Source of the DNA: Verrucomicrobia bacterium LW23
GTDB lineage: Bacteria; Verrucomicrobiota; Verrucomicrobiia; Methylacidiphilales; UBA1321
Length of the DNA: 24,000 nt
Assembly (NCBI GenBank): GCA_003054695.1
Contig: QAZA01000045.1
Coordinates: 669,956-693,955, forward strand
Direction of reading: 5' to 3'
Part shown: piece by piece, positions 347 through 24,000 of the stretch
Position numbering within the stretch: position 1 is the first letter of the stretch
Layout of the letters: each line of letters starts with the position of its first letter
Made by a program: the position numbers and the translations under genes
The notes under the pieces: generated by a model
The model's input: only the letters and a program-made list of their open reading frames with translations
What the model was told of the DNA's origin: nothing
Databases searched by the model: none

Positions 347-413
347 TACGCATGGGTTTAAACTGCTCCAAACGTCATTTCGAACGTCCCCGCGCGAGCT
401 TTTGCAATAGCCT

Positions 414-914
414 TTAATCCACCGCGGCTATTGCATCCGCGTTGATGGTTTTGGCGATACGGGTGAGCTCGTGGTCGGTGGCGCCTTCCTCGTCCAGGGT
501 GCGTTGCAGGAGCTTGGCTATCTCCTTGTGGCCCAACAGTTCGGCAAAGATGCGGGCGGTGCCGTAGCCGGCGATCTCGTAGTGCTCCACGCGCTGGGCG
601 GCGGCGATGAGCGCGGCGTCCTTCACGGCGACTTCGGCGTCCTCGTGGATGACGTCGGCGCCTTCTTCCACGAGGCCCTTCATCGCGGCGCAGGATTTGC
701 CGCGCGGGGAGGCGCCCAGCTGCTCCATAATTTGCTCGATGCGGGCGGCGTGCTCTTCGGTCTGCTTCAGATGCTTCTCAAAGCCGGCGCGCAGTTTGGG
801 CGATGAGGCCGCCGCCGCCATTTTGGGCAGCGCCTTGATGAGCTGCGTTTCCGCACTGTAAAGATCTTTAAGTTCGTGCACCAGAAGCTGTTCTAGAGTG
901 GATAGTTTGGACAT
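414..914 (-). CDS. DUF892 / YciE-YciF family ferritin-like stress protein
   Basis: The 166-aa product from the ATG at 912-914 (MSKLSTLEQLLVHELKDLYSAETQLIKALPKM ... AAAQRVEHYEIAGYGTARIFAELLG) resembles the YciE/YciF four-helix-bundle family over its whole length. The 240-aa ORF-track version (to 1136) only adds 74 non-conserved residues. Confidence 0.9.
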   Translation of the reverse strand: MSKLSTLEQLLVHELKDLYSAETQLIKALPKMAAAASSPKLRAGFEKHLKQTEEHAARIEQIMEQLGASPRGKSCAAMKGLVEEGADVIHEDAEVAVKDAALIAAAQRVEHYEIAGYGTARIFAELLGHKEIAKLLQRTLDEEGATDHELTRIAKTINADAIAAVD

Positions 915-6310: not shown

Positions 6311-6430
6311 CAGGCTCCCAGAACGGCTGAGCCGTTCCATACCATAGCCGGAGGGTGCCCGCAGCATTCTGATGCGAGGACTACCCCGGGAAAGTTCGCA
6401 TCGGGAACCATACGCGAACCCTTCGCGCGC
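6311..6430 (+). repeat. Dispersed ~120-nt three-hairpin element (family 2), copy a
   Basis: 6321-6390 aligns at about 90% with 13916-13986 and with the reverse complement of 14161-14227 (core GCCGTTCCATA.CATAGCC...GCCCGCAGCATTCTGATGCGAGGACTACCCCGG). It contains the hairpins GAACGGC-TGA-GCCGTTC (6321-6337) and CGCGAA-CCC-TTCGCG (6413-6427). It lies between the convergent FGGY and dus genes. Confidence 0.8.
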
Positions 6431-7656: not shown

Positions 7657-7701
7657 GGCGGGGAGGGGAAAGGGGAATGGAGGAAGGGAAAGGGGAATTG
7701 T

Positions 7702-8089
7702 ATAACCACGAAGCACACGAAGCACACGAAATTTCGGACGGGGACGAAAAGGGGCGGGGACTTTAGAGGCAGGCTCGCCGTGGTGCACTCCCCCCGTCCT
7801 TACCATTTGTCCCGTCCCCTCTTCGCGTCCTTAGCGTCCTTAGCGTCCTTAGCGTCCTTAGCGCCCTTTGCGCCCTTTGCGCCCTTTGCGCGAATAGGCC
7901 CCACACGTATCGCCTCACGTTTACGCAAGTCCTTACCACAACGAAGTTTCACGCAAAGAGCGCAAAGGACGCAGGGGACGCAAAGGGGGGATTAAGGCAA
8001 TAGAAATGAACTCGTCACCCCTTGTCCCTTGTCTTGTGTCCCCATCCCCTTTTCGTCCCCTCCGTAAATTTCGTGTGTTTCGTGGTTAA
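7702..8089. repeat. Outer inverted repeat of a nested palindromic complex (arms 7702-7761 and 8038-8089)
   Basis: Left arm: ATAACCACGAAGCACACGAAGCACACGAAATTTCGGACGGGGACGAAAAGGGGCGGGGAC. Reverse complement of the right arm: TTAACCACGAAACACACGAAATTTACGGAGGGGACGAAAAGGGGATGGGGAC. They differ by a handful of mismatches and indels, and the left arm carries one extra CACGAAGCA 9-mer. G-rich and C-rich flanks extend the symmetry to about 7660 and 8128. Confidence 0.8.
7816..7990. repeat. Inner palindrome of the nested complex; arms built from CCTTNGCG 9-mers (left 7816-7892, right 7950-7990)
   Basis: The left arm contains (CGTCCTTAG)x4 at 7826-7861 followed by (CGCCCTTTG)x3 at 7862-7888. The right arm CACGCAAAGAGCGCAAAGGACGCAGGGGACGCAAAGGGGGG is the complementary 9-mer type but roughly half as long (41 nt against 77 nt). 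The loop is about 57 nt. Confidence 0.8.
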
Positions 8090-8281
8090 ATCCTCCCCCT
8101 TCCCCTGCCGTTCCCCCGTTTTCACGCGTAAAGTCGAAGAAAAGTCTTTCTCCTGAGCGCCGGACGGCATAAAAGGTTCCTTTCGACGCGTTCCTTTGGT
8201 GCGCGACGGGGCGGGAATCCTCCGGGTTTCCGCGCCGGCTTTCACTCCTTAGCCCTTCAGCATCAGCATCTTGCAGCAGTA

Positions 8282-9080: not shown

Positions 9081-10094
9081 ATGCCCAAAGCCCTCATTAC
9101 CGGTATCACCGGCCAGGACGGTTCGTACCTCGCGGAGCTGTTGCTTTCGAAAGGTTACGAAGTGCATGGCATCATCCGCCGCGCCAGCACATTCAACACC
9201 GAGCGTATCGACCACCTGTACAAGGATCCCCATGTCATTGGTGTTAAGCTGTTTCTGCACTATGGTGACCTGAGTGACAGCGCCTCGCTCAACCGCCTGC
9301 TGTACGATATCAAGCCCGACGAGATTTACCACCTCGGCGCCCAAAGCCACGTGCGCGTAAGTTTTGACGTGCCGGAGTACACGGGCGACGTGACAGGCCT
9401 CAGCACGGTGCGTATTCTGGAGGCCATCCGCGAGACAAACCTGAAGTGCCGCTTCTATCAGGCCAGCAGCTCGGAGATGTACGGCCTGGTGCAGGAGGTT
9501 CCGCAAAGCGAGACGACGCCGTTCTACCCGCGCAGCCCCTACGGCGCCGCCAAGGTGTACGCGTACTGGATTACCGTGAACTACCGCGAGAGCTATAAAC
9601 TGCACGCCAGCAACGGTATCCTGTTCAATCACGAGAGCCCGCGCCGCGGCGAGACGTTTGTCACGCGCAAAATCACCCGCGCCGTCGCCCGCATCAAGGC
9701 CGGCCTGCAAAAGGACCTGTACCTGGGCAACCTGGACGCCAAACGCGACTGGGGCTTTGCGCCGGAGTACGTGGAGGCGATGTACCTGATGCTGCAGCAG
9801 GATAAGCCGGACGACTACGTCATCGCCACCGGCGAGACCTATACGGTGCGCCAGTTTCTGGAGGAGTCATTCAGCTTCGTTAACCTGGACTGGAACGACT
9901 ACGTAAAGATTGACCCGCGCTATTACCGCCCGGCGGAAGTGGACCTGCTCATCGGCGACTCCACCAAAGCGCGCAAGAAGCTGAACTGGGAGCCGAAGAC
10001 GACCTTCAAGGAGCTCGTCCGCATTATGGTGCAGGCCGACATTGATCAGCTGGACCGCGTGATGGCCGGCAAGGAAATCCGCTCCGACTACTAA
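9081..10094 (+). CDS. gmd: GDP-mannose 4,6-dehydratase
   Basis: The product is collinear with E. coli Gmd: [105 protein letters not shown]. Confidence 0.97.
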
Positions 10095-10218
10095 AGGCTG
10101 TCGACATTTAGGCGAGCTGCGGTTCCCCCCTTGGCGATCTTTCCGTCCTTGGCGTTAAATTCTGTTCGATTGTATGGCGAGGGGATTCTTAACGCCAAGG
10201 ACGGAAAGATCGCCCAAG
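10095..10218 (+). repeat. Palindromic element abutting a stop codon, copy 1: leader AGGCTGTCGACATTT plus a perfect 26-bp hairpin
   Basis: It starts on the base after the gmd TAA (10092-10094). The arms 10133-10158 (GGCGATCTTTCCGTCCTTGGCGTTAA) and 10189-10214 are perfectly complementary, with a 30-nt loop. The leader and architecture match the copy at 17930-18045 on the minus strand. Confidence 0.9.
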
Positions 10219-10565
10219 ACTCAAAAGGGAAAAGCCCGTATTTTTCGGCTGAGGAGCAACGCGGGCGCCAAGCCTTTTATCAGATGCGAAAAATGGGATG
10301 CTGTAGGGTATTGGCAGCGCGCCAGCGCGTGGCGTTGCATACCCGTTGCTGACGGCCCCTGCGGGGGGCCGTCGCTGGGTAGCGCGAGGCGTGTGCGGTG
10401 CTTGTTTGGTGAGGAAGGCGGCGGAATCCCCGGGGGCAGGGGGTTGCGGCGGTTCGACTGGCAGGCGTTTAGCGATGGACTGCCTTGCGATGCTGCGGAG
10501 TGGCCGCATCGCCAGTTGCCATCGGGCGGATTCCCGTCTATTCTTCGGATTCCTTTTTCCATCCT

Positions 10566-11522
10566 ATGAGTTCCAGTTCTCCTCTTTCCAAAGACGCGCG
10601 GATTTTTGTCGCGGGGCATCGCGGCATGGTAGGCAGCGCCTGTGCGCGGCTGCTGCGGGCGCGCGGGTACCACAACCTGCTGCTGCGCACCCGACACGAG
10701 CTGGATCTGCGCGACACGGCAGCCGTGCGCCACTTTTACGAGGAGTACAAGCCGGAGTATGTCATTGTGGCGGCCGCCAAAGTCGGCGGCATTATCGCCA
10801 ACCGCGATCACCCCGTGGAGTTTCTGCTGCATAACATGCAGATACAGAACAACCTGATCTCCTCCGCGTTTGAGGCCGGCGTAAAGAAGCTGCTCTTTCT
10901 CGGCAGCTCGTGCATCTACCCCAAATTTGCACCGCAACCCATTCCGGAGAGCGCGCTGCTGACGGGAGCGCTGGAGCCGACCAACGAGGCCTATGCGATC
11001 GCCAAGATTGCCGGCATCAAACTGTGCCAGGCCTACGCCGCGCAGTACGGCGCCCCATTTATCAGCGCCATGCCCACCAATCTTTACGGGCCGGAGGATA
11101 ACTTTGACCTCACCAGCAGCCACGTGCTGCCGGCGCTCATCCGCCGCTTTCACGAGGCGAAGGAGCGCGGCGACGACTCCGTAACGCTCTGGGGCACGGG
11201 CTCCCCGCGCCGCGAATTTTTGCACGTGGACGACCTGGCCGAGGCGTGCCTGTTCCTGCTGGAGACGTACACCTCGCCCGAGATTGTGAACGTAGGGTGC
11301 GGCGAGGACGTGACGATTGCGGAGCTGGCCGGTATCGTCAAGGAGACGGCCGGCTTTGCCGGCGAGATCCGCTGGGACACCACCAAGCCCGACGGCACGC
11401 CACGCAAGCTGATGGACATCAGCAAGATACGCGCCCTGGGCTGGAGCCCCCGCATCGGCCTTAAGGAAGGCGTGGCCAGCGCCGCCCGCTGGTGGCTGGA
11501 CCACCGCGAAACGCTGGAATAG
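10566..11522 (+). CDS. fcl: GDP-L-fucose synthase (GDP-4-keto-6-deoxy-D-mannose 3,5-epimerase/4-reductase)
   Basis: The 318-aa product from ATG 10566 is collinear with E. coli Fcl: [76 protein letters not shown]. The track start at 10485 adds 27 non-homologous residues. Confidence 0.96.
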
Positions 11523-11613
11523 CCGGCCAGGCGCCCCGCCGCCCCTCGCCTGCGGGGGAAAGCCGCGCGTCACGGGGCTTTACCGTAATGCTGTTGTTAT
11601 GGGATGTTAGGGG

Positions 11614-12165
11614 ATGGAAAGAGCGCAAGCGAGAGGAGAGGAGATCACCGTGCGTCACATTACACTGCTGGGCATGATGGGCGCCGGGAAATCGAGCGTA
11701 GGGCGCGAGCTCTCGCAGCTACTCCGCAGGCCCTTCTACGACAGCGACTTCGAGATCGAGCGCAGCACCCGCATGACGATCCCGGACATCTTTGCCAAAC
11801 GCGGCGAGCCCTGGTTTCGCGACCGCGAAGCGCAAATCATCGCGGATATCGTCGAGGAGACGCAGCCCGTGGTGCTCAGCATCGGCGGCGGCGCGTTCGT
11901 CCGCGACACCACACGCGCCCTCCTCCTGCGCGATACCATCACCGTCTACCTGCGCGCCACCCTGCCCTCCCTGCTGGCCCGCCTGCACGGCGGCCACGGC
12001 CGGCCCCTTCTCTCCAGCAGCGAGGACCTGACCACGCGCCTCACCACGCTGATGGAAACGCGCGGCCCCCTCTACAGCCAGGCCGCCCTGCTCATCGATA
12101 CCGACGACGCCCAGCCCCGCGAAGTAGCCCGCCGCGTGGCGGTCGCCGTCCAGGCCCTGAGGTAG
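11614..12165 (+). CDS. aroK: Shikimate kinase
   Basis: The Walker A motif is ITLLGMMGAGKSSVGRELS, followed by FYDSDFEIE, FRDREAQ and SIGGGAF, the typical AroK order. ATG 11614 gives a ~14-aa N-terminal extension. An in-frame GTG at 11650 is an alternative start. Confidence 0.9.
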   Translation: MERAQARGEEITVRHITLLGMMGAGKSSVGRELSQLLRRPFYDSDFEIERSTRMTIPDIFAKRGEPWFRDREAQIIADIVEETQPVVLSIGGGAFVRDTTRALLLRDTITVYLRATLPSLLARLHGGHGRPLLSSSEDLTTRLTTLMETRGPLYSQAALLIDTDDAQPREVARRVAVAVQALR

Positions 12166-12513
12166 CCACGACCTTACGGCGCGCAACAGCCCCAGCATGG
12201 AGATGTTGCGTACCTACAGAACGCTGCGGAATTTCATCGTCACCCAGAGCTCACGCCCGGACTTCACGCCCCGGGCTACAGGCTTTCGCGCCTGGGGCGT
12301 TTCAGAACGCGGTGCAAATTCCTGCTTTCGTCGCAAGCCATTCCGGCGTATGATAGAAGCGGGTTGTGCAGGCTGCATGGCCTGCTTGCATTTGACACAA
12401 CGTATCCTCCTCATTATTTCCAGAGCCCCCTTACCGCTCGGTAGAACGCCACTTTTTCCGTCCGCTCCCCCTCGGGGCGGACAATATAAACACTTTTTGG
12501 TGAAATAATTTGA

Positions 12514-13834: not shown

Positions 13835-13942
13835 CAAGCTGGCGCGGGGTTGGCTCTCCGAGAACGGCGGAGCCGGACGTTCGCAACACAAGCTGGCGCG
13901 AGCGACGCTCTCCGAGAACGGCGGTAGCCGTTCCATAGCATA
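13835..13942 (+). repeat. Two tandem 54-bp units duplicating the 5' part of the family-2 element
   Basis: Unit 1 is 13835-13888 and unit 2 is 13889-13942. Both carry CAAGCTGGCGCG, then 7 variable nt, then CTCTCCGAGAACGGCGG(T)AGCCG. Only unit 2 continues into the full element. Confidence 0.8.
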
Positions 13943-14233
13943 GCCCGGGGTTGCCCGCAGCATTCTGATGCGAGGACTACCCCGGGTAGGCTGGAATCAG
14001 GAAACCCCACGCGAAGAGTTCTTCCGTCGGACCCTTCGCGCTCGTTCCTCGCGCGTGCCATGTTCGGAGCCGCAGCATCAGAGAGCGCCTCGCACATGCA
14101 TTAAACGAGCGCGAGTGGATCGCAATAAGACCAATTATCGGAATAAACCGGTACATTGGTGGGGTAGTCCTCGCATCAGAATGCTGCGGGCAACCCCGGG
14201 CTATGGTATGGAACGGCTCCGCCGTTTTCGGAG
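13910..14233. repeat. ~325-bp composite palindrome formed by two inverted family-2 elements
   Basis: The outer arms 13910-13986 and 14161-14233 are reverse complements with 3 differences by eye. A second tier is TCGCGCTCGTT (14036-14046) with AACGAGCGCGA (14104-14114). Both tiers share a centre near 14074. The right half additionally carries an AGACCAATT...ATTGGT mini-hairpin (14128-14160). Confidence 0.85.
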
Positions 14234-17577: not shown

Positions 17578-17708
17578 GCAGAGGCAGGCCACCCCCACCC
17601 AAGGCAAGGCAAGACAATCCTCCGAAGCGCCACCGGCGCGATACGCGGGCTTACACCCTGGCATCGGGCTTTCGCGCCAGTGGCTCTCTAGGGGGATACA
17701 AGCCTCTA

Positions 17709-17872
17709 AGACCAATTCGCAAAGTTATTTGCTCTTTATGCGGAGCTGATTTTGGGCTATGGGTGCGCTGAAACGGAGGGAGTGCATTAGGATAATGCTC
17801 GACCGGAGTTTCAGTGCGGCCATAGCCCAAAAGCGGCCCGCAAAAAGCGCAAATAACTTTGCGAATTGGTCT
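17709..17872. repeat. 164-bp imperfect palindrome (family 3) with AGACCAATTCGCAAAGTTATTTGC termini
   Basis: 17709-17732 and 17849-17872 are perfect reverse complements (24/24). The arms stay roughly three-quarters identical to the centre, GCATTA-GGA-TAATGC (17784-17798). Each arm also contains a local CGCAAA-N4-TTTGC(G) hairpin. Confidence 0.9.
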
Positions 17873-17929
17873 AAGCTTGGGATAAAGGGGGAAACGTAAG
17901 GAAGGTTGAACATCGTGGAGGCAATCCTC

Positions 17930-18045
17930 TTGGCGAAACTTTCCGCCCTTGGCGATGTTATCTGAAGGTCCGTAGATCCAAGGCAGATAATATCGCCAAG
18001 GACGGAAAGTTTCGCCAAGGGAAGCAGCGGAAATGTCGACAGCCT
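17930..18045 (-). repeat. Palindromic element abutting a stop codon, copy 2 (minus-strand orientation)
   Basis: On the minus strand the MBOAT stop TAG (18046-18048) is followed immediately by AGGCTGTCGACATTT (18045-18031), the same 15-mer that follows the gmd stop. The arms 17930-17964 and 17984-18018 pair at 33/35 with a 19-nt loop. The shared arm core is CTTTCCGTCCTTGGCG. Confidence 0.9.
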
Positions 18046-19464
18046 CTAAAACTCGTAATACACAAACGGCATGGCCTTGCCGGAGGTGGTGGCGGCGATG
18101 ATGCCGAACAGGGCGATAAAGCAGGCGGCCTGGGCGTAGTTGGGCATCTCGGCAAACCGGCGCTCAAACCACTCGGCGGAGGAGTTGGGGGCAAAGTGCA
18201 GGGCGGCGGCAAGCAGGAGGATCAGCACTACGTTGGGGTTGAGCATCGCCGTGCCCATGTGCAGCTGCGCCATCTTGGCAAACATGGCGGCGACGACTTC
18301 CAGGTTTTCGGCGCGGAAGAAGATCCAGCAGGCGCACACAAAGTGGAAGGTGAGGATGCCGCCCACCACGCGGCCGATGGTCGACTCCACCTTCTCGCGC
18401 CCGGTAAGCTGGTAGTAGATGGTGACGAGCGTCATGCCCGTGCCGTGCAGCACGCCCCAGATAACGTAGCGCCACTCCGCTCCGTGCCACAGGCCGCACA
18501 GAAACATCACGATCCACATGTTAAAGTACATGCGCAACATGCCGCACCGGTTGCCGCCCAGCGGAATGTACAGGTAGTCGCGAAACCACGTGGAGAGACT
18601 GATGTGCCAGCGTCTCCAGAACTCGCGGATATCGGCCGACTTGTAGGGGGAGTTGAAGTTCTCAGGTATGGTAAGGCCCAGCAGCAGGGCGCTGCCGATG
18701 GCGATATCGGTATAGCCGGAGAAGTCGCAGTAGATCTGGAACGCGTAGGCGTAGACGCCGATAAGCGTCTCGAACGAGCTGTAAAAGCTGTCCTTGTCAA
18801 ACGCCTGGTCGACGATATTGGCGCCCAGGTAGTCGGCAATCACCAGCTTCTTGAACAAGCCGCACAGGATAAGCCACAGGCCGCGCGAGCCCATCTCGCT
18901 GGTCAGCACCGGCGTCGCAAGCATCTGTGGCAGAAAGGTTTTGGCCCGGATAATCGGCCCCGCCACCAGGTGGGGGAAGAAGCTCACATACGCCAGGTAC
19001 TCGTGGTAACGGTTGCACGGCTCCAGATCCCGCCGGTAAAGCGAGATGATGTAGCTCATCGTCTGGAAGGTATAGAAGCTGATGCCGGGCACCATGGCGA
19101 TGCTCCAGGGAATGTCCGGCCGCGCCTCGCCCGTCCACCACGCAAAAATGTCGGCATAAGTGGCACCGGCAAAGTTGGCGTACTTAAAGAACGCGAGCAG
19201 CCCCATGTTGGTGCAGATGCTGCACAACAGCAGGGCGCGCCGCTTCCACTGCACGTCGATCCCGGCCATCTTCCGGCCAATAAAGTAGTCCAGCGAGGAG
19301 GAGAAGAAGATCAGCGGCAAAAACTGCGGCGTAGGGAAGCTGTAAAAGATGTACGACGCCACCACCAGCACCGTGCCCCGCCACGTGCGCGAGGCATGCC
19401 CCAGCCAGTAGGCAACAAAAACAATCAGCAAAAAGATGCCGTATGTGGGATCCGTAAATTGCAT
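18046..19464 (-). CDS. MBOAT-family membrane O-acyltransferase (AlgI / DltB / PatA-like)
   Basis: The 472-aa polytopic protein is collinear with P. aeruginosa AlgI, including ISFYTFQTMSYIISLYR, FPHLVAGPIIR, YCDFSGYTDIAIG and the invariant-histidine motif FWRRWHISLSTWFRDYLYIPLGGNR. Confidence 0.95.
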   Translation of the reverse strand: MQFTDPTYGIFLLIVFVAYWLGHASRTWRGTVLVVASYIFYSFPTPQFLPLIFFSSSLDYFIGRKMAGIDVQWKRRALLLCSICTNMGLLAFFKYANFAGATYADIFAWWTGEARPDIPWSIAMVPGISFYTFQTMSYIISLYRRDLEPCNRYHEYLAYVSFFPHLVAGPIIRAKTFLPQMLATPVLTSEMGSRGLWLILCGLFKKLVIADYLGANIVDQAFDKDSFYSSFETLIGVYAYAFQIYCDFSGYTDIAIGSALLLGLTIPENFNSPYKSADIREFWRRWHISLSTWFRDYLYIPLGGNRCGMLRMYFNMWIVMFLCGLWHGAEWRYVIWGVLHGTGMTLVTIYYQLTGREKVESTIGRVVGGILTFHFVCACWIFFRAENLEVVAAMFAKMAQLHMGTAMLNPNVVLILLLAAALHFAPNSSAEWFERRFAEMPNYAQAACFIALFGIIAATTSGKAMPFVYYEF

Positions 19465-19607
19465 GCGAGCGTTGGGGCGGGGAGGGGGAGAGAGGAGAGA
19501 TATCGCAAACGACGCGCGCCGGCGTCAGGCCCATTCGCGAGGGGGTTGGGGGGAAACGGGGTTTAATCTTCTGCAGCTGATTACCTGTCCTCTGGTTTTC
19601 AGCATCT

Positions 19608-19750
19608 TTCCCCCCTTCGCGCTCTTTGCGTCCTTGGCGTCCTTTGCGCTAAAACCTGTATGAAGTACCGCCACACAAATCGATATCGCTATACGTCTGG
19701 GTGATTTCACGCAAAGGACGCTAAGGACGCAAAGAGCGCGAAGGGGGGAA
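19608..19750. repeat. Palindrome with 41-nt arms (40/41) and a 61-nt loop; CCTTNGCG 9-mer arms
   Basis: Left arm 19608-19648 is TTCCCCCCTTCGCGCTCTTTGCGTCCTTGGCGTCCTTTGCG. Right arm 19710-19750 is its reverse complement apart from one G/A difference. It sits in the 369-bp gap between the giant SGNH gene and the MBOAT gene. Confidence 0.9.
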
Positions 19751-19833
19751 TGGATTCTCGAATAGATAGTTACCTAAGAATAAAGGACTAAGGAGTTAAG
19801 TATGTTGAGTTATTGGCAAAGTCGTCCCTGGCC

Positions 19834-22800: not shown

Positions 22801-24000
22801 CGCGGGCGTGTCCTTCGTTTCGCTGCTGCTGTTGCCGCCCAGCTCTACCACGCCCATGGCGGGGGTGCCGGGGCCGGACGTCGCCGCCGTTTCCGTATCG
22901 GGCGCGGCGTCGGGGCGCACTTCCACTTCTATCTTCTGCTTAAAGTCGTAAGTCTTCGGTGCTTCGGCAATGCCGGGTTCGGAGATCTGCGGGAGCATCA
23001 GCATGCTGCCCTTCGTCACCACGGCAAAGGCGGCGGCGAGGTACAGCACTTGGGCGGTTTTGCTAAACACCGGGTTGCCGGTGCTGCTGCCGCGGATAAA
23101 CTCCTCCCACGTGGGCAGGGTAAGCTGGATATTGCGGCCCTCCACGCGAACGCCGGGCGCCGCGGCCAGGGCGGCGGCGGCCAGCACTTCATCGCTCACC
23201 GAGCCCGCGGTCGGCGGGCCGGGCAGGCGGATGGAATCGGCGCGCGCGGCAACCGTGTCCGGGCGTAGCTCCTCGCCGGGGGTGCCGGAGGCGGGGCGGC
23301 CGGAGCCATCGCCCAGCAGTCCGGCACTGGCGCGGGGCATCAGCCGGGCGCGACCAGGCGAGGCAGTGGCGGCGTCGATCTTAACGCCGCAAAACATGCA
23401 AAACGCGGTCTCCAGATGATCCGGCAGCAGCGCCTCGTTGGCGCACGCGGTGCAGCGCACCTCGCGAAACCCCGGGCGGGCCGGCTCCGCGGCCTGCAGG
23501 CGGGAGAGGCCGCCGGCGTAGCCGCCGCTGTCCAGCCGCGCCATGCGCGCGGTGGGGCCGGAGGCGATGAGATTGCGCACCTGCTCCATCGTGTGCGGCG
23601 TCACCGTCTGCAACAGGTAGGAGAAGACGGAGCTGACCGGGCGCCACACCTCGTCCTGCGCCGTGCACACCAGCGTCTCCGCGGGCAGCGTGCCGGCGCG
23701 CAGCAGGGGCACCAGGTCGTCCGGCTTAAAGGGGCCCTCCACATGCACGCCGTCCAGGCAGTAGAAGAACGGGCCGCGCGGGGCGGCGGAGGCCTGGGCT
23801 GCGGCCAGTGCTTTGGCGTCGGAGGGATCGGGCAGGGAGATATCGGGGAAAACGTCGCTGACGGGCTGCCAGTCGCTGCTGCCTTCGGCGCAAAAAGTGG
23901 TGTCGGCGCCGAGCCGGCCCGTAGTCAGCAGCTTTTCAATATCGTTGCGGTCGGCGGGACCGTGGACGGTGAGCCCGTCCTGGCAGTAAAAGTAGATCAT
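19834..24000 (-). CDS. 1388-aa multidomain protein: GYF_2 x2, zinc ribbon, TM segment, Pro/Ala/Thr linker, SGNH/GDSL hydrolase-acyltransferase domain, low-complexity tail
   Basis: GYF_2-like segments are aa 1-52 (MIYFYCQDGLTVHGP...SSDWQPVSDVF) and aa 77-127 (FFYCLDGVHVEGP...DEVWRPVSSVF). A CxxC-N14-CxxC motif spans aa 183-204. A hydrophobic segment spans aa ~314-336. The SGNH blocks are HYGDS (801-805), NFGANE (1009-1014) and GDFIH (1111-1115). The ATG is the last codon position of the window (23998-24000), so the upstream context is not visible. Confidence 0.9.
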   Translation of the reverse strand: MIYFYCQDGLTVHGPADRNDIEKLLTTGRLGADTTFCAEGSSDWQPVSDVFPDISLPDPSDAKALAAAQASAAPRGPFFYCLDGVHVEGPFKPDDLVPLLRAGTLPAETLVCTAQDEVWRPVSSVFSYLLQTVTPHTMEQVRNLIASGPTARMARLDSGGYAGGLSRLQAAEPARPGFREVRCTACANEALLPDHLETAFCMFCGVKIDAATASPGRARLMPRASAGLLGDGSGRPASGTPGEELRPDTVAARADSIRLPGPPTAGSVSDEVLAAAALAAAPGVRVEGRNIQLTLPTWEEFIRGSSTGNPVFSKTAQVLYLAAAFAVVTKGSMLMLPQISEPGIAEAPKTYDFKQKIEVEVRPDAAPDTETAATSGPGTPAMGVVELGGNSSSETKDTPARGAQATTPAATAPSPAAETATTVATAPPAATSGTGTDSAPAASASGTPATASPAATASASTAPVSPATAPTPPGTGATTTTTASAPAPLPAAAAALPGATSSPATAGAPQTPSMAGSAPPTPAQPAPATPIAATATNAHAHPEAPAALPAQPVTPVATDSQPGTGAQPAMPVQPFTPPAASPAPTPAAPIAPGDPVATPAGPAAPVAGPLPTAPAPATVQEHQPIAIAHGNSTPAPAPAAPAATAPTASASSATSTAAAKTTPSDPLNQVLHGVMTDLFNGGSTGNASPEPETAPPPATASTPAAAHASPAPATTPQLARMNPTPGVNPNTLLKPEGVPLPKTEAERIAYGARALKIDLEKAAYVPTEDAIEDPTGSLNHFLDNLTRTQQGKPGAVTRVLHYGDSIVVMDFITGQMRERMHNLFGDSGAGYMLLDRPSASYQRMDLNWKSGGGWTIESIMKVKPKPGDYSLGGFAFDGAPGAFAEYTVPKKKEGDPYSLVEVHYLARPTGGKFDVLINGKKEGTIDTRADEVQARVARLRLNDGAETARINVTSGAPRLLGVVLERTRPGVVYDAAGVLGARCLRLKEIRPELLVAQLKERHPDLIVLNFGANESDDDNRSMAAIEADYSRLLALFRQALPKASILVMGALDRGERRNGKVVTKPNMPTIIMAQRAAALKNGCAFFNTFVAMGGDGTMGRWHSMRPRLVSGDFIHPTESGAAVVGDSLYRAVMKSFLLRVADRVLNPGVPIPGAPPANTPAPLTPPRTPGNATASGPAAPASTPTTTPAPAPAAVPATFATPATAPATTSAANTPATAPAPVSGPQGDGNGGAAPDNVPVSAPMPDLASIPTAPIAAAPPTAPRAERVERPEKDKDKDKDKLNNKRDRTERADRDRNDAPRPSSSPQPQQQEARRPAPAVGNGMATANRTGGSSSPATTSAPPLHTTAAAPPRASRPARAERTEQATPQRRPSSPGSTISATRESMYE

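Follow-up and report, generated by a model that had tools for sequence, protein, structure and literature searches.

A long-hairpin repeat that begins directly after the stop codons of two genes in Verrucomicrobia bacterium LW23

In a 24,000-nucleotide stretch of the genome of Verrucomicrobia bacterium LW23 (contig QAZA01000045.1, positions 669,956 to 693,955; hereafter the window), gmd and a gene encoding an MBOAT-family acyltransferase are each followed by a copy of the same repeat unit, composed of a 15-nt leader, a spacer with a run of C residues and a long hairpin, and in both cases the unit begins on the first base after the stop codon. The unit is repeated, its junctions with the two stop codons are exact, it is absent from the orthologous sites of the nearest relatives, which carry the same stop codons, and its hairpins belong to a local superfamily of similar structures. 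We consider it somewhat better than even, at roughly 55%, that the unit represents one subfamily of a lineage-specific interspersed long-hairpin repeat, which is located at gene 3' ends, resembles repetitive extragenic palindromic (REP) sequences, MITEs (miniature inverted-repeat transposable elements) and Correia elements in kind, and matches no described family. To judge from the collections scanned here, the hairpin repeat is known only from LW23.

The gmd gene (GDP-mannose 4,6-dehydratase; 9081-10094, forward strand; Pfam GDP_Man_Dehyd, E 1.8e-149) ends GAC TAC TAA, with the TAA at 10092-10094, and the leader AGGCTGTCGACATTT occupies the 15 nucleotides directly 3' of it (10095-10109, forward strand; copy C). 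On the reverse strand the MBOAT gene (18046-19464; PF03062, E 1.8e-31) ends GAG TTT TAG, the TAG being found at 18048-18046, and is directly followed by an identical leader (18031-18045, reverse strand; copy D). A preliminary description of this DNA had claimed that both leaders begin exactly at the base after the stop and that the junction is precise, the last codons of the two genes being unrelated, and both statements agree with the coordinates and sequences, including the pre-stop codons GAC TAC and GAG TTT. By hand arithmetic, without a program, chance alone would be expected to yield an exact 15-mer shared twice ~5e-5 times in the 48 kb of strand searched, and the probability that both repeat ends fall at offset 0 in intergenic regions of ~470 nt is ~5e-6. 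Furthermore, the contigs of an independent short-read assembly of SRR7051040 match the window with 0 mismatches, both junctions included. No third copy of the leader is found within the window when up to 3 mismatches are allowed.

The similarity between the two copies is not confined to the leader. The homologous unit spans 10095-10219 in copy C and 18045-17928 in copy D with ~80% identity over the 118-125 nt of the alignment, it starts right after the stop codon and stops at the 3' foot of the hairpin (...CCAAGA), and similarity is lost on either side. The leader itself is identical at 15 of 15 positions, as opposed to ~75% identity for the remainder of the unit, and it holds an 8-bp palindrome, TGTCGACA, whose two occurrences in the window are both in leaders (0.26 expected). 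In copy C the leader is followed by a spacer and C-run, AGGCGAGCTGCGGTT CCCCCC (10110-10130, forward strand), and in the alignment this segment corresponds to the spacer and short C-run of copy D, CCGCTGCTTCC (18020-18030, reverse strand) followed by C at 18019. The segment after the leader had been described as variable, but it can actually be aligned between the copies (GCTGC..TTCCC), and the earlier notion of the unit as a repeat extends to the whole stretch of ~120 nt. Hairpin C (10131-10219, forward strand) is assembled from the 9-nt units TTGGCGATC, TTTCCGTCC and TTGGCGTTA and has 26-nt arms (10133-10158 and 10189-10214) that are 100% complementary and enclose a 30-nt loop, while hairpin D (17928-18019, reverse strand) has 36-nt arms (17929-17964 and 17984-18019) that are 94% complementary and enclose a loop of 19 nt. 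The core CTTTCCGTCCTTGGCG, previously noted as common to the two hairpins, is found in each arm of both. The hairpins span 87-92 nt and carry a one-sided 5' tail of 27-36 nt with no counterpart on the 3' side. Their predicted RNA folds have energies of -80.1 kcal/mol each, with z = -7.2 for C and z = -10.5 for D relative to shuffles. Changes between the two copies are mirrored in the arms (ATC/GAT versus AAAC/GTTT), and the loop-proximal parts of the stems are wholly different.

The remainder of the gmd-fcl spacer (10220-10565, forward strand) is not common to copy D. Sequences 3' of hairpin C and of hairpin D were aligned locally with each other, as was intergenic DNA of LW23 with that of relatives, and the scores are no better than those of shuffles (p = 0.1-0.7); the search for a right edge of the insertion gave one marginal local match, near a TPR stop (p ~0.03). 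A larger element bounded by TA...TA or TTA...TTA, with weak inverted ends AAGGCT and AGCCTT reaching 10279 and ~17877, was also considered and dropped as numerology.

The GMD and MBOAT proteins encoded in the window are each 100% identical to a protein of LW23. The nearest other genomes are 'Candidatus Methylacidiphilales' metagenome-assembled genomes (MAGs; GCA_041287705.1, GCA_035460925.1), in which GMD is 92% and MBOAT 75% identical to the LW23 proteins and in which the gene order KH/R3H - gmd - fcl - kinase and GYF/GDSL - MBOAT is kept. The leader and hairpin are not present at the orthologous gmd and MBOAT ends of these nearest relatives. In LW23, gmd is separated by 471 nt from fcl (10566-11522, forward strand; GDP-fucose synthase-type epimerase/reductase; Pfam Epimerase, E 2.4e-65), whereas the spacer measures 175 nt in the nearest relatives and only 5 nt, or is replaced by an overlap, at 84% GMD identity. 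Since the relatives keep the gene order without the element and have a shorter spacer, we conclude from these comparisons that the element was gained in the LW23 lineage, recently on an evolutionary scale and after the split from its closest sequenced relatives, and that it entered a compact gmd-fcl junction. The acquired insertion that the preliminary description had raised as one possibility is thereby upheld, as is its statement that gmd is split from fcl by 471 bp. A predicted sigma-70-like site at 10516-10544, 22 nt upstream of the fcl start, suggests that fcl may now own a promoter.

The same relatives bear on the origin of the stop codons. Their gmd (in L086-L088) ends GAC GCT TAA with the stop at the same codon, giving 337 aa, and the MBOAT ortholog ends AAA TTC TAG, likewise with the stop at the same codon (472 aa). 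Because element-free orthologs end in TAA and TAG at identical codon positions, both stops are, by this comparison, ancestral and not supplied by the element. This disagrees with the earlier suggestion that the element perhaps supplies the stop, and the proposed comparison of orthologous gmd-fcl junctions for a replaced native stop accordingly returned the same TAA at the same codon.

Hairpins C and D are two of five long hairpins (A-E) in the window, the arms of which are built from 9-nt units of the types TCCTTNGCG, TTTGCGCCC and GTTGCGACC. All arms of the five (10 of 10) start with a C-run followed by TTSGCG (arm start TCCCCCC-TTSGCG), and many end in a G-run. Hairpin A is found at 126-237, hairpin B at 7810-7991 and hairpin E at 19606-19752, between the stop of the GYF/GDSL gene and the start of MBOAT. 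Hairpins A, C, D and E are each located downstream of a gene; B is found in a divergent region, is asymmetric, its arms containing ~8 and 4 units, and is nested between the arms of a second type of hairpin (7682-7759 and 8041-8109). In the RNAalifold consensus of A, C, D and E, 6 of the 20 pairs have both partners changed and still pair. The arms preserve their self-complementarity and not their sequence. Such preservation would follow from selection for an RNA or DNA hairpin, or alternatively from the way in which the arms arise.

To our knowledge no bacterial repeat with 9-nt periodic arms of this sort has been described. The hairpin family is absent from 32 kb of the nearest relatives and from 1.3 Mb of gmd loci of 80 other species, no match to the hairpin repeat was obtained by blastn in plasmid and phage collections, and in viral contigs a search for the hairpin core with the complementary arm pattern was likewise without a match. 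Rfam gave 0 matches to the hairpins at gathering thresholds, the only hits being to generic microRNA-precursor models far below threshold (25-46 bits versus 76-117). Searched as protein for spurious open reading frames (ORFs), a chimeric six-frame translation of both copies found no match, and one open frame of the element compared exhaustively with proteins by HMMER gave 0 matches. By eye only, the leader bears some likeness to the ends of a MITE close by or to the sequence flanking hairpin A, and the ten-arm alignment lends this no support.

That the hairpins have further copies is indicated by the points at which short-read contigs end. Wherever an exact repeat of 31 nt or more can be verified inside the window, the k = 31 contigs of SRR7051040, which match the window at 100% identity, break off 29 nt inside that repeat: contig ends are found at 13968 and 14176 in the 45-nt inverted pair (13939-13983 / 14161-14205), and a contig end at 17736 leads to the repeat edge of the neighbouring MITE at 17707. 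The contigs bearing gmd and MBOAT end at 10156 and 17994, respectively, and by the same rule we infer that exact repeats of at least 31 nt start at 10127 and 18023, positions that precede the TTGGCG feet of hairpin C and hairpin D by 4-5 nt; no partner of either repeat occurs in the window. Since the contigs break inside C and D in accordance with the 29-nt rule and the partners are not in the window, both hairpins very probably have near-identical copies elsewhere in the LW23 genome. Coverage drop-outs are an unlikely explanation of the breaks, since the rule fits the checkable repeats exactly. The leader is too short to affect a 31-mer graph, and the break points say nothing on leader copies. 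It should also be mentioned that the contig ends at 10350 and 8048 point, by the 29-nt rule, to more exact repeats whose partners are not in the window; these repeats end at 10379, within the gmd-fcl spacer, and at 8077. Another repeated element may therefore be present in the spacer, downstream of hairpin C.

The first bases of the leader recur at other sites. The motif TARAGGCT is found four times in the window as compared with 0.9 times in shuffles, and two of the sites are the gmd stop (10092-10099, forward strand) and the MBOAT stop (18048-18041, reverse strand). The third is the stop of a DUF892 gene, where AGGCT follows TAA (TAA AGGCTATTGC; 409-416, reverse strand) with no leader remainder and no adjoining hairpin, and the fourth is at 17708-17701 (reverse strand), 340 nt downstream of the MBOAT stop and right after the MITE. 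Neither the DUF892 flank nor the post-MITE flank can be taken for a decayed leader, as there is no similarity past AGGCT. A second copy of TTAGAGGCT at 17701-17709 (reverse strand) forms a 9-nt direct repeat of 18049-18041, and between the two stand the rest of the leader, hairpin D, 56 nt of tail and the MITE; no such direct repeat accompanies the gmd copy, which counts against a simple duplication model. A stop followed by AGGCT is found in 3 of the 15 genes in the window and in 1 of 878 long ORFs in other sampled genomes, among which A0-2GGCT after the stop occurs in 6 of 878. In the nearest relatives 2 of 12 genes have a stop followed by (A)GGCT (TAA GGCT; L086 1750-1756 and L089 4636-4642), and at the orthologous position a relative's gmd stop is followed by GGCTTT (TAA GGCTTT). 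Post-stop (A)GGCT may be a motif particular to the lineage, a target site or else a footprint. The fact that the third stop carries AGGCT without the element, together with the GGCTTT of the relative's gmd, suggests that AGGCT (leader nt 1-5) is native 3' flank or target and that the element proper starts at GTCGACATTT, 5 nt past the stop. This pattern would fit a sequence-specific target and microhomology-primed copying alike.

In each copy a near-perfect hairpin of ~90 nt, composed of 9-nt units, is preceded by a 5' tail (leader, spacer and C-run). On the interspersed-repeat reading the element would be mobile, its copies landing at a short target that contains or adjoins TAA or TAG, at the recurrent TAR-AGGCT, while hits inside genes would be selected against. 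The junction would then reflect the landing site and not the creation of a stop by the element. Repeat ends that coincide with stop codons have a precedent in the GTAG-type REPs (PMC3733652). Once in place, the element would be transcribed within the 3' untranslated region (UTR) of gmd or MBOAT and fold into a very stable hairpin, which probably acts at the RNA level, be it as a barrier to 3'-exonucleases, as an RNase III substrate or as a terminator without a U-tract, and gmd would be uncoupled from fcl. A perfect stem of 26-36 bp in RNA would be expected to obstruct 3'-exonucleases or to undergo RNase III cleavage, the latter in the way documented for Correia elements (PMC2649163).

Several observations weigh against this reading. 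There are only two copies of the leader, and a scan of 185,579 species genomes gave 0 matches to the leader plus hairpin start; if that collection holds LW23 minus this window, the leader subfamily consists of these two members only, and a subfamily of two would fit one-off copying better than repeated targeting. No target-site duplication common to both copies was found, there are no inverted termini besides the hairpin arms, and there is no candidate transposase. With regard to function, no U-tract follows hairpin C or D (the post-stem sequences are GACTCAAAAGGG and GGATTGCCTCCA), and short terminators of the canonical kind are found at other places in the window (12368-12385). A terminator role is therefore not required; in addition, the terminator scan of the window does not call hairpin C or D. 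The sole metagenome match to the leader plus hairpin start (L002) is regarded as a chance match, being found in an unrelated low-GC context without any hairpin.

The likeliest alternative is that the unit is a selected 3'-end module, in which the leader must touch the stop, either to work together with the terminating ribosome or by way of TGTCGACA as a putative protein-binding site that aids termination or decay. We hold this to be rather unlikely. The terminating ribosome covers ~12-15 nt downstream of the stop, and the module could account for a leader that is fully identical when the remainder of the unit is only ~75% so, for the confinement of the palindrome to the two leaders in the window, for the enrichment of stop plus AGGCT among the genes here (3 of 15 against 1 of 878) and for the compensated differences between the arms of the two copies. 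Against it, orthologs in the nearest relatives manage without leader and hairpin, the leader is predicted to pair with downstream sequence in one way in copy C and in another in copy D, the third site with stop plus AGGCT shares nothing but AGGCT, and there are two instances only.

The unit might alternatively have been copied once between 3' UTRs, by template switching or recombination at a pre-existing TAR-AGGCT, so that the precise junction was inherited from microhomology; this we regard as quite unlikely. The TTAGAGGCT direct repeat that flanks the entire insertion at MBOAT, the GGCT after the relative's gmd stop, the TAA AGGCT at the DUF892 stop without an element and the lack of a further leader-bearing copy in any scanned collection would all be explained in this way, but the copies are ~80% identical with indels and unrelated loops, such that neither is a recent copy of the other, and the gmd copy lacks a matching direct repeat. 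A more specific form of the interspersed-repeat reading, in which a mobile hairpin element homes to TAR-AGGCT, with gene ends as safe landing sites, two of the four motifs in the window occupied and two empty, and hairpin elements of Verrucomicrobiota more widely docking at stops, as an unrelated type of hairpin does at the gmd-fcl junction of an Opitutia genome, seems equally doubtful to us, as the idea rests on two copies and on the TAR-AGGCT statistics. If such targeting were true, the unit would be a small element that finds gene ends and spreads without killing its host. It would furthermore naturally supply 3' UTRs with hairpins by which operons are rewired, in this case by splitting the normally fused gmd-fcl pair, and would offer a handle on 3'-end formation in Verrucomicrobiota, whose terminators are poorly understood. 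If, on the contrary, the unit is a two-copy repeat only, it is an ordinary lineage-specific intergenic repeat and would chiefly serve as a warning in genome assembly and annotation.

It is highly improbable that the insertion created or replaced the stops, with the element carrying TAR or its last base. The identity between the copies can be read from the TA of the stop (TA-R-AGGCT...), in the Opitutia MAG L011 the gmd TAA shares its AA with a different type of hairpin, and repeats that supply stops have precedent in that GTAG-type REP termini often provide the TAG stop of flanking ORFs (PMC3733652); the notion is nevertheless contradicted by the fact that both proteins end at the positions of their orthologs with the ancestral TAA and TAG kept. 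Chance similarity or an assembly artefact, for which the small copy number alone would speak, can practically be dismissed in view of the expectations of ~5e-5 for the 15-mer and ~5e-6 for the double junction and the presence of both junctions in the independent short-read assembly with 0 mismatches.

Three further readings of the sequence after the stops were rejected. An antisense ORF ending ...NVDSL* is made unlikely by the facts that the frames differ between the copies and that the antisense stops come from unrelated gene bases. The post-stop frames are open for 85 codons after gmd (10095-10349, forward strand) and for 105 codons after MBOAT (18045-17731, reverse strand, through the MITE), but the downstream peptides are unrelated beyond RLSTF, which argues against stop-codon readthrough, and the open frames are probably an effect of composition. 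The TCGACA of the leader resembles a -35 box, but on inspection there is no -10 box at the right spacing for the leader to be a promoter.

Compared with known systems, the LW23 unit is a new family within the known class of REP, Correia/ERIC-type and MITE repeats, its peculiarities being the periodic arms, the C-run foot and the one-sided leader. Like the REP sequences, which are tagged by GTAG or CGTC and associated with RAYT proteins, it is an interspersed extragenic palindrome concentrated at gene 3' ends that can touch the stop codon, and the roles in mRNA stability and termination proposed for REPs are also those suggested here. REPs are however 20-40 nt in size, whereas the LW23 hairpins measure 87-92 nt with arms of 26-36 nt, and the unit furthermore differs from REPs by its C-run/TTSGCG foot, its 9-nt periodicity and its asymmetric 5' tail of 27-36 nt. 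A terminal GTAG/CTAC or CGTC/GACG tag is found in neither C nor D, the feet being CCCC-TTGGCG ... CGCC(C)AAGA; a CTAC does precede the gmd stop, but it belongs to the coding sequence and has no counterpart in copy D.

The Correia elements (CREE/NEMIS) of Neisseria have 26-bp terminal inverted repeats, a TA duplication and a site for integration host factor, all of which the LW23 unit lacks. Along with the ERIC and RU-type elements of enterobacteria they share with the LW23 unit the properties of being nonautonomous, of 100-170 nt, and of giving transcripts with long hairpins in mRNAs, but the unit is not similar to Correia elements in sequence, its copies have no duplication in common and a one-sided leader is added to it, and no TA...TA flank is common to copies C and D. 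It should be added that Correia elements form hairpins in mRNAs that are bound by RNase III and cut or protected, which alters the expression of neighbouring genes (PMC2649163).

MITEs derived from insertion sequences (IS), among them the one at 17710-17871, are like the unit small and intergenic, and the MITE at 17710-17871 is multi-copy, adjoins hairpin D and inserts at TTA (TAA on the other strand), a triplet resembling a stop codon. The ends of this MITE are clearly inverted, TTA is duplicated beside them, and a relative has a full-length IS that matches it; none of this applies to the leader-hairpin unit. The hairpin arms could serve as inverted termini, but the C/D unit extends 27-36 nt past the 5' arm only, and no full-length IS with the ends of the unit is found in the window or in the 1.3 Mb of other loci. 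The layout of a one-sided linker and hairpin beside a fixed short sequence bears a resemblance to the left end of IS200/IS605-type elements (palindrome-associated transposable elements, PATEs). PATEs however have subterminal hairpins at both ends and insert 3' of a fixed target of 4-5 nt, while the LW23 unit has a single and far longer hairpin, and two copies cannot define a target. Intrinsic terminators are alike in forming a stable hairpin soon after the stop, and hairpin D is found between convergent genes, but terminators usually have stems of 5-14 bp, whereas the LW23 stems are 26-36 bp with ~50% G+C and no U-tract. An integron attC site was rejected, since the ends of the unit are TTGGCG/CGCCAA and not RYYYAAC ... 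GTTRRRY (on inspection GTTAAAT occurs only beside the loop of C) and since the two copies, 8 kb from each other and on different strands, are surrounded by housekeeping genes and do not form a same-strand cassette array next to intI. No integrase is found among the window ORFs scanned against Pfam.

Other repeats and hairpins are found near the genes considered here. The MITE at 17710-17871 (reverse strand) is 162 nt long, has the inverted ends GACCAATTCGCAAAGTTATTTGC (GACCAATTCGC...) and is flanked by TTA duplications at 17872-17874 and 17707-17709, and a 40-nt mini-version with the ends GACCAATTCG... and flanking TTA duplications occurs at 306-345. The relative L089 has, downstream of MBOAT (~6397 onward), a gene that gives faint to clear matches to HTH_23/28/29/32/33 and is bordered by like ends, TTAGACCATTTCGCACAGTTAATTG; we take its product to be an IS630-family transposase. 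The MITE end starts with G, and insertion at a TTA overlapping a TAG stop would regenerate the stop. A 58-nt inverted pair (13926-13983 / 14161-14218), 98% complementary and 177 nt apart, is located between a hypothetical gene and the permease/Usp gene, and a third copy of its sequence, 73-78 nt in length, follows an FGGY kinase gene (6315-6407); the three are probably another MITE with a solo end.

The second type of hairpin, which encloses hairpin B in LW23 (7682-7759 / 8041-8109), consists of CACACGAAG units (AACCACGAAGCACACGAAAT...), and a further copy is found just beyond window position 24000 (L083 1-30). In the Opitutia MAG L011 hairpins of this type are found at 11039-11116 and 11565-11637, where they flank a PDDEXK_3 nuclease-family gene (E 9e-29) between gmd and fcl, and the first of them begins at the base after the gmd TAA, the element consensus AACCACG overlapping the AA of the stop. 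In a Pyrinomonadaceae (acidobacterial) MAG, L005, a hairpin with a 34-bp stem (~11003-11131) overlaps the gmd 3' end. Finally, the nearest relative L086 has a hairpin with a 20-bp stem and A-rich and T-rich flanks between convergent genes (8168-8210), which is likely a bidirectional terminator.

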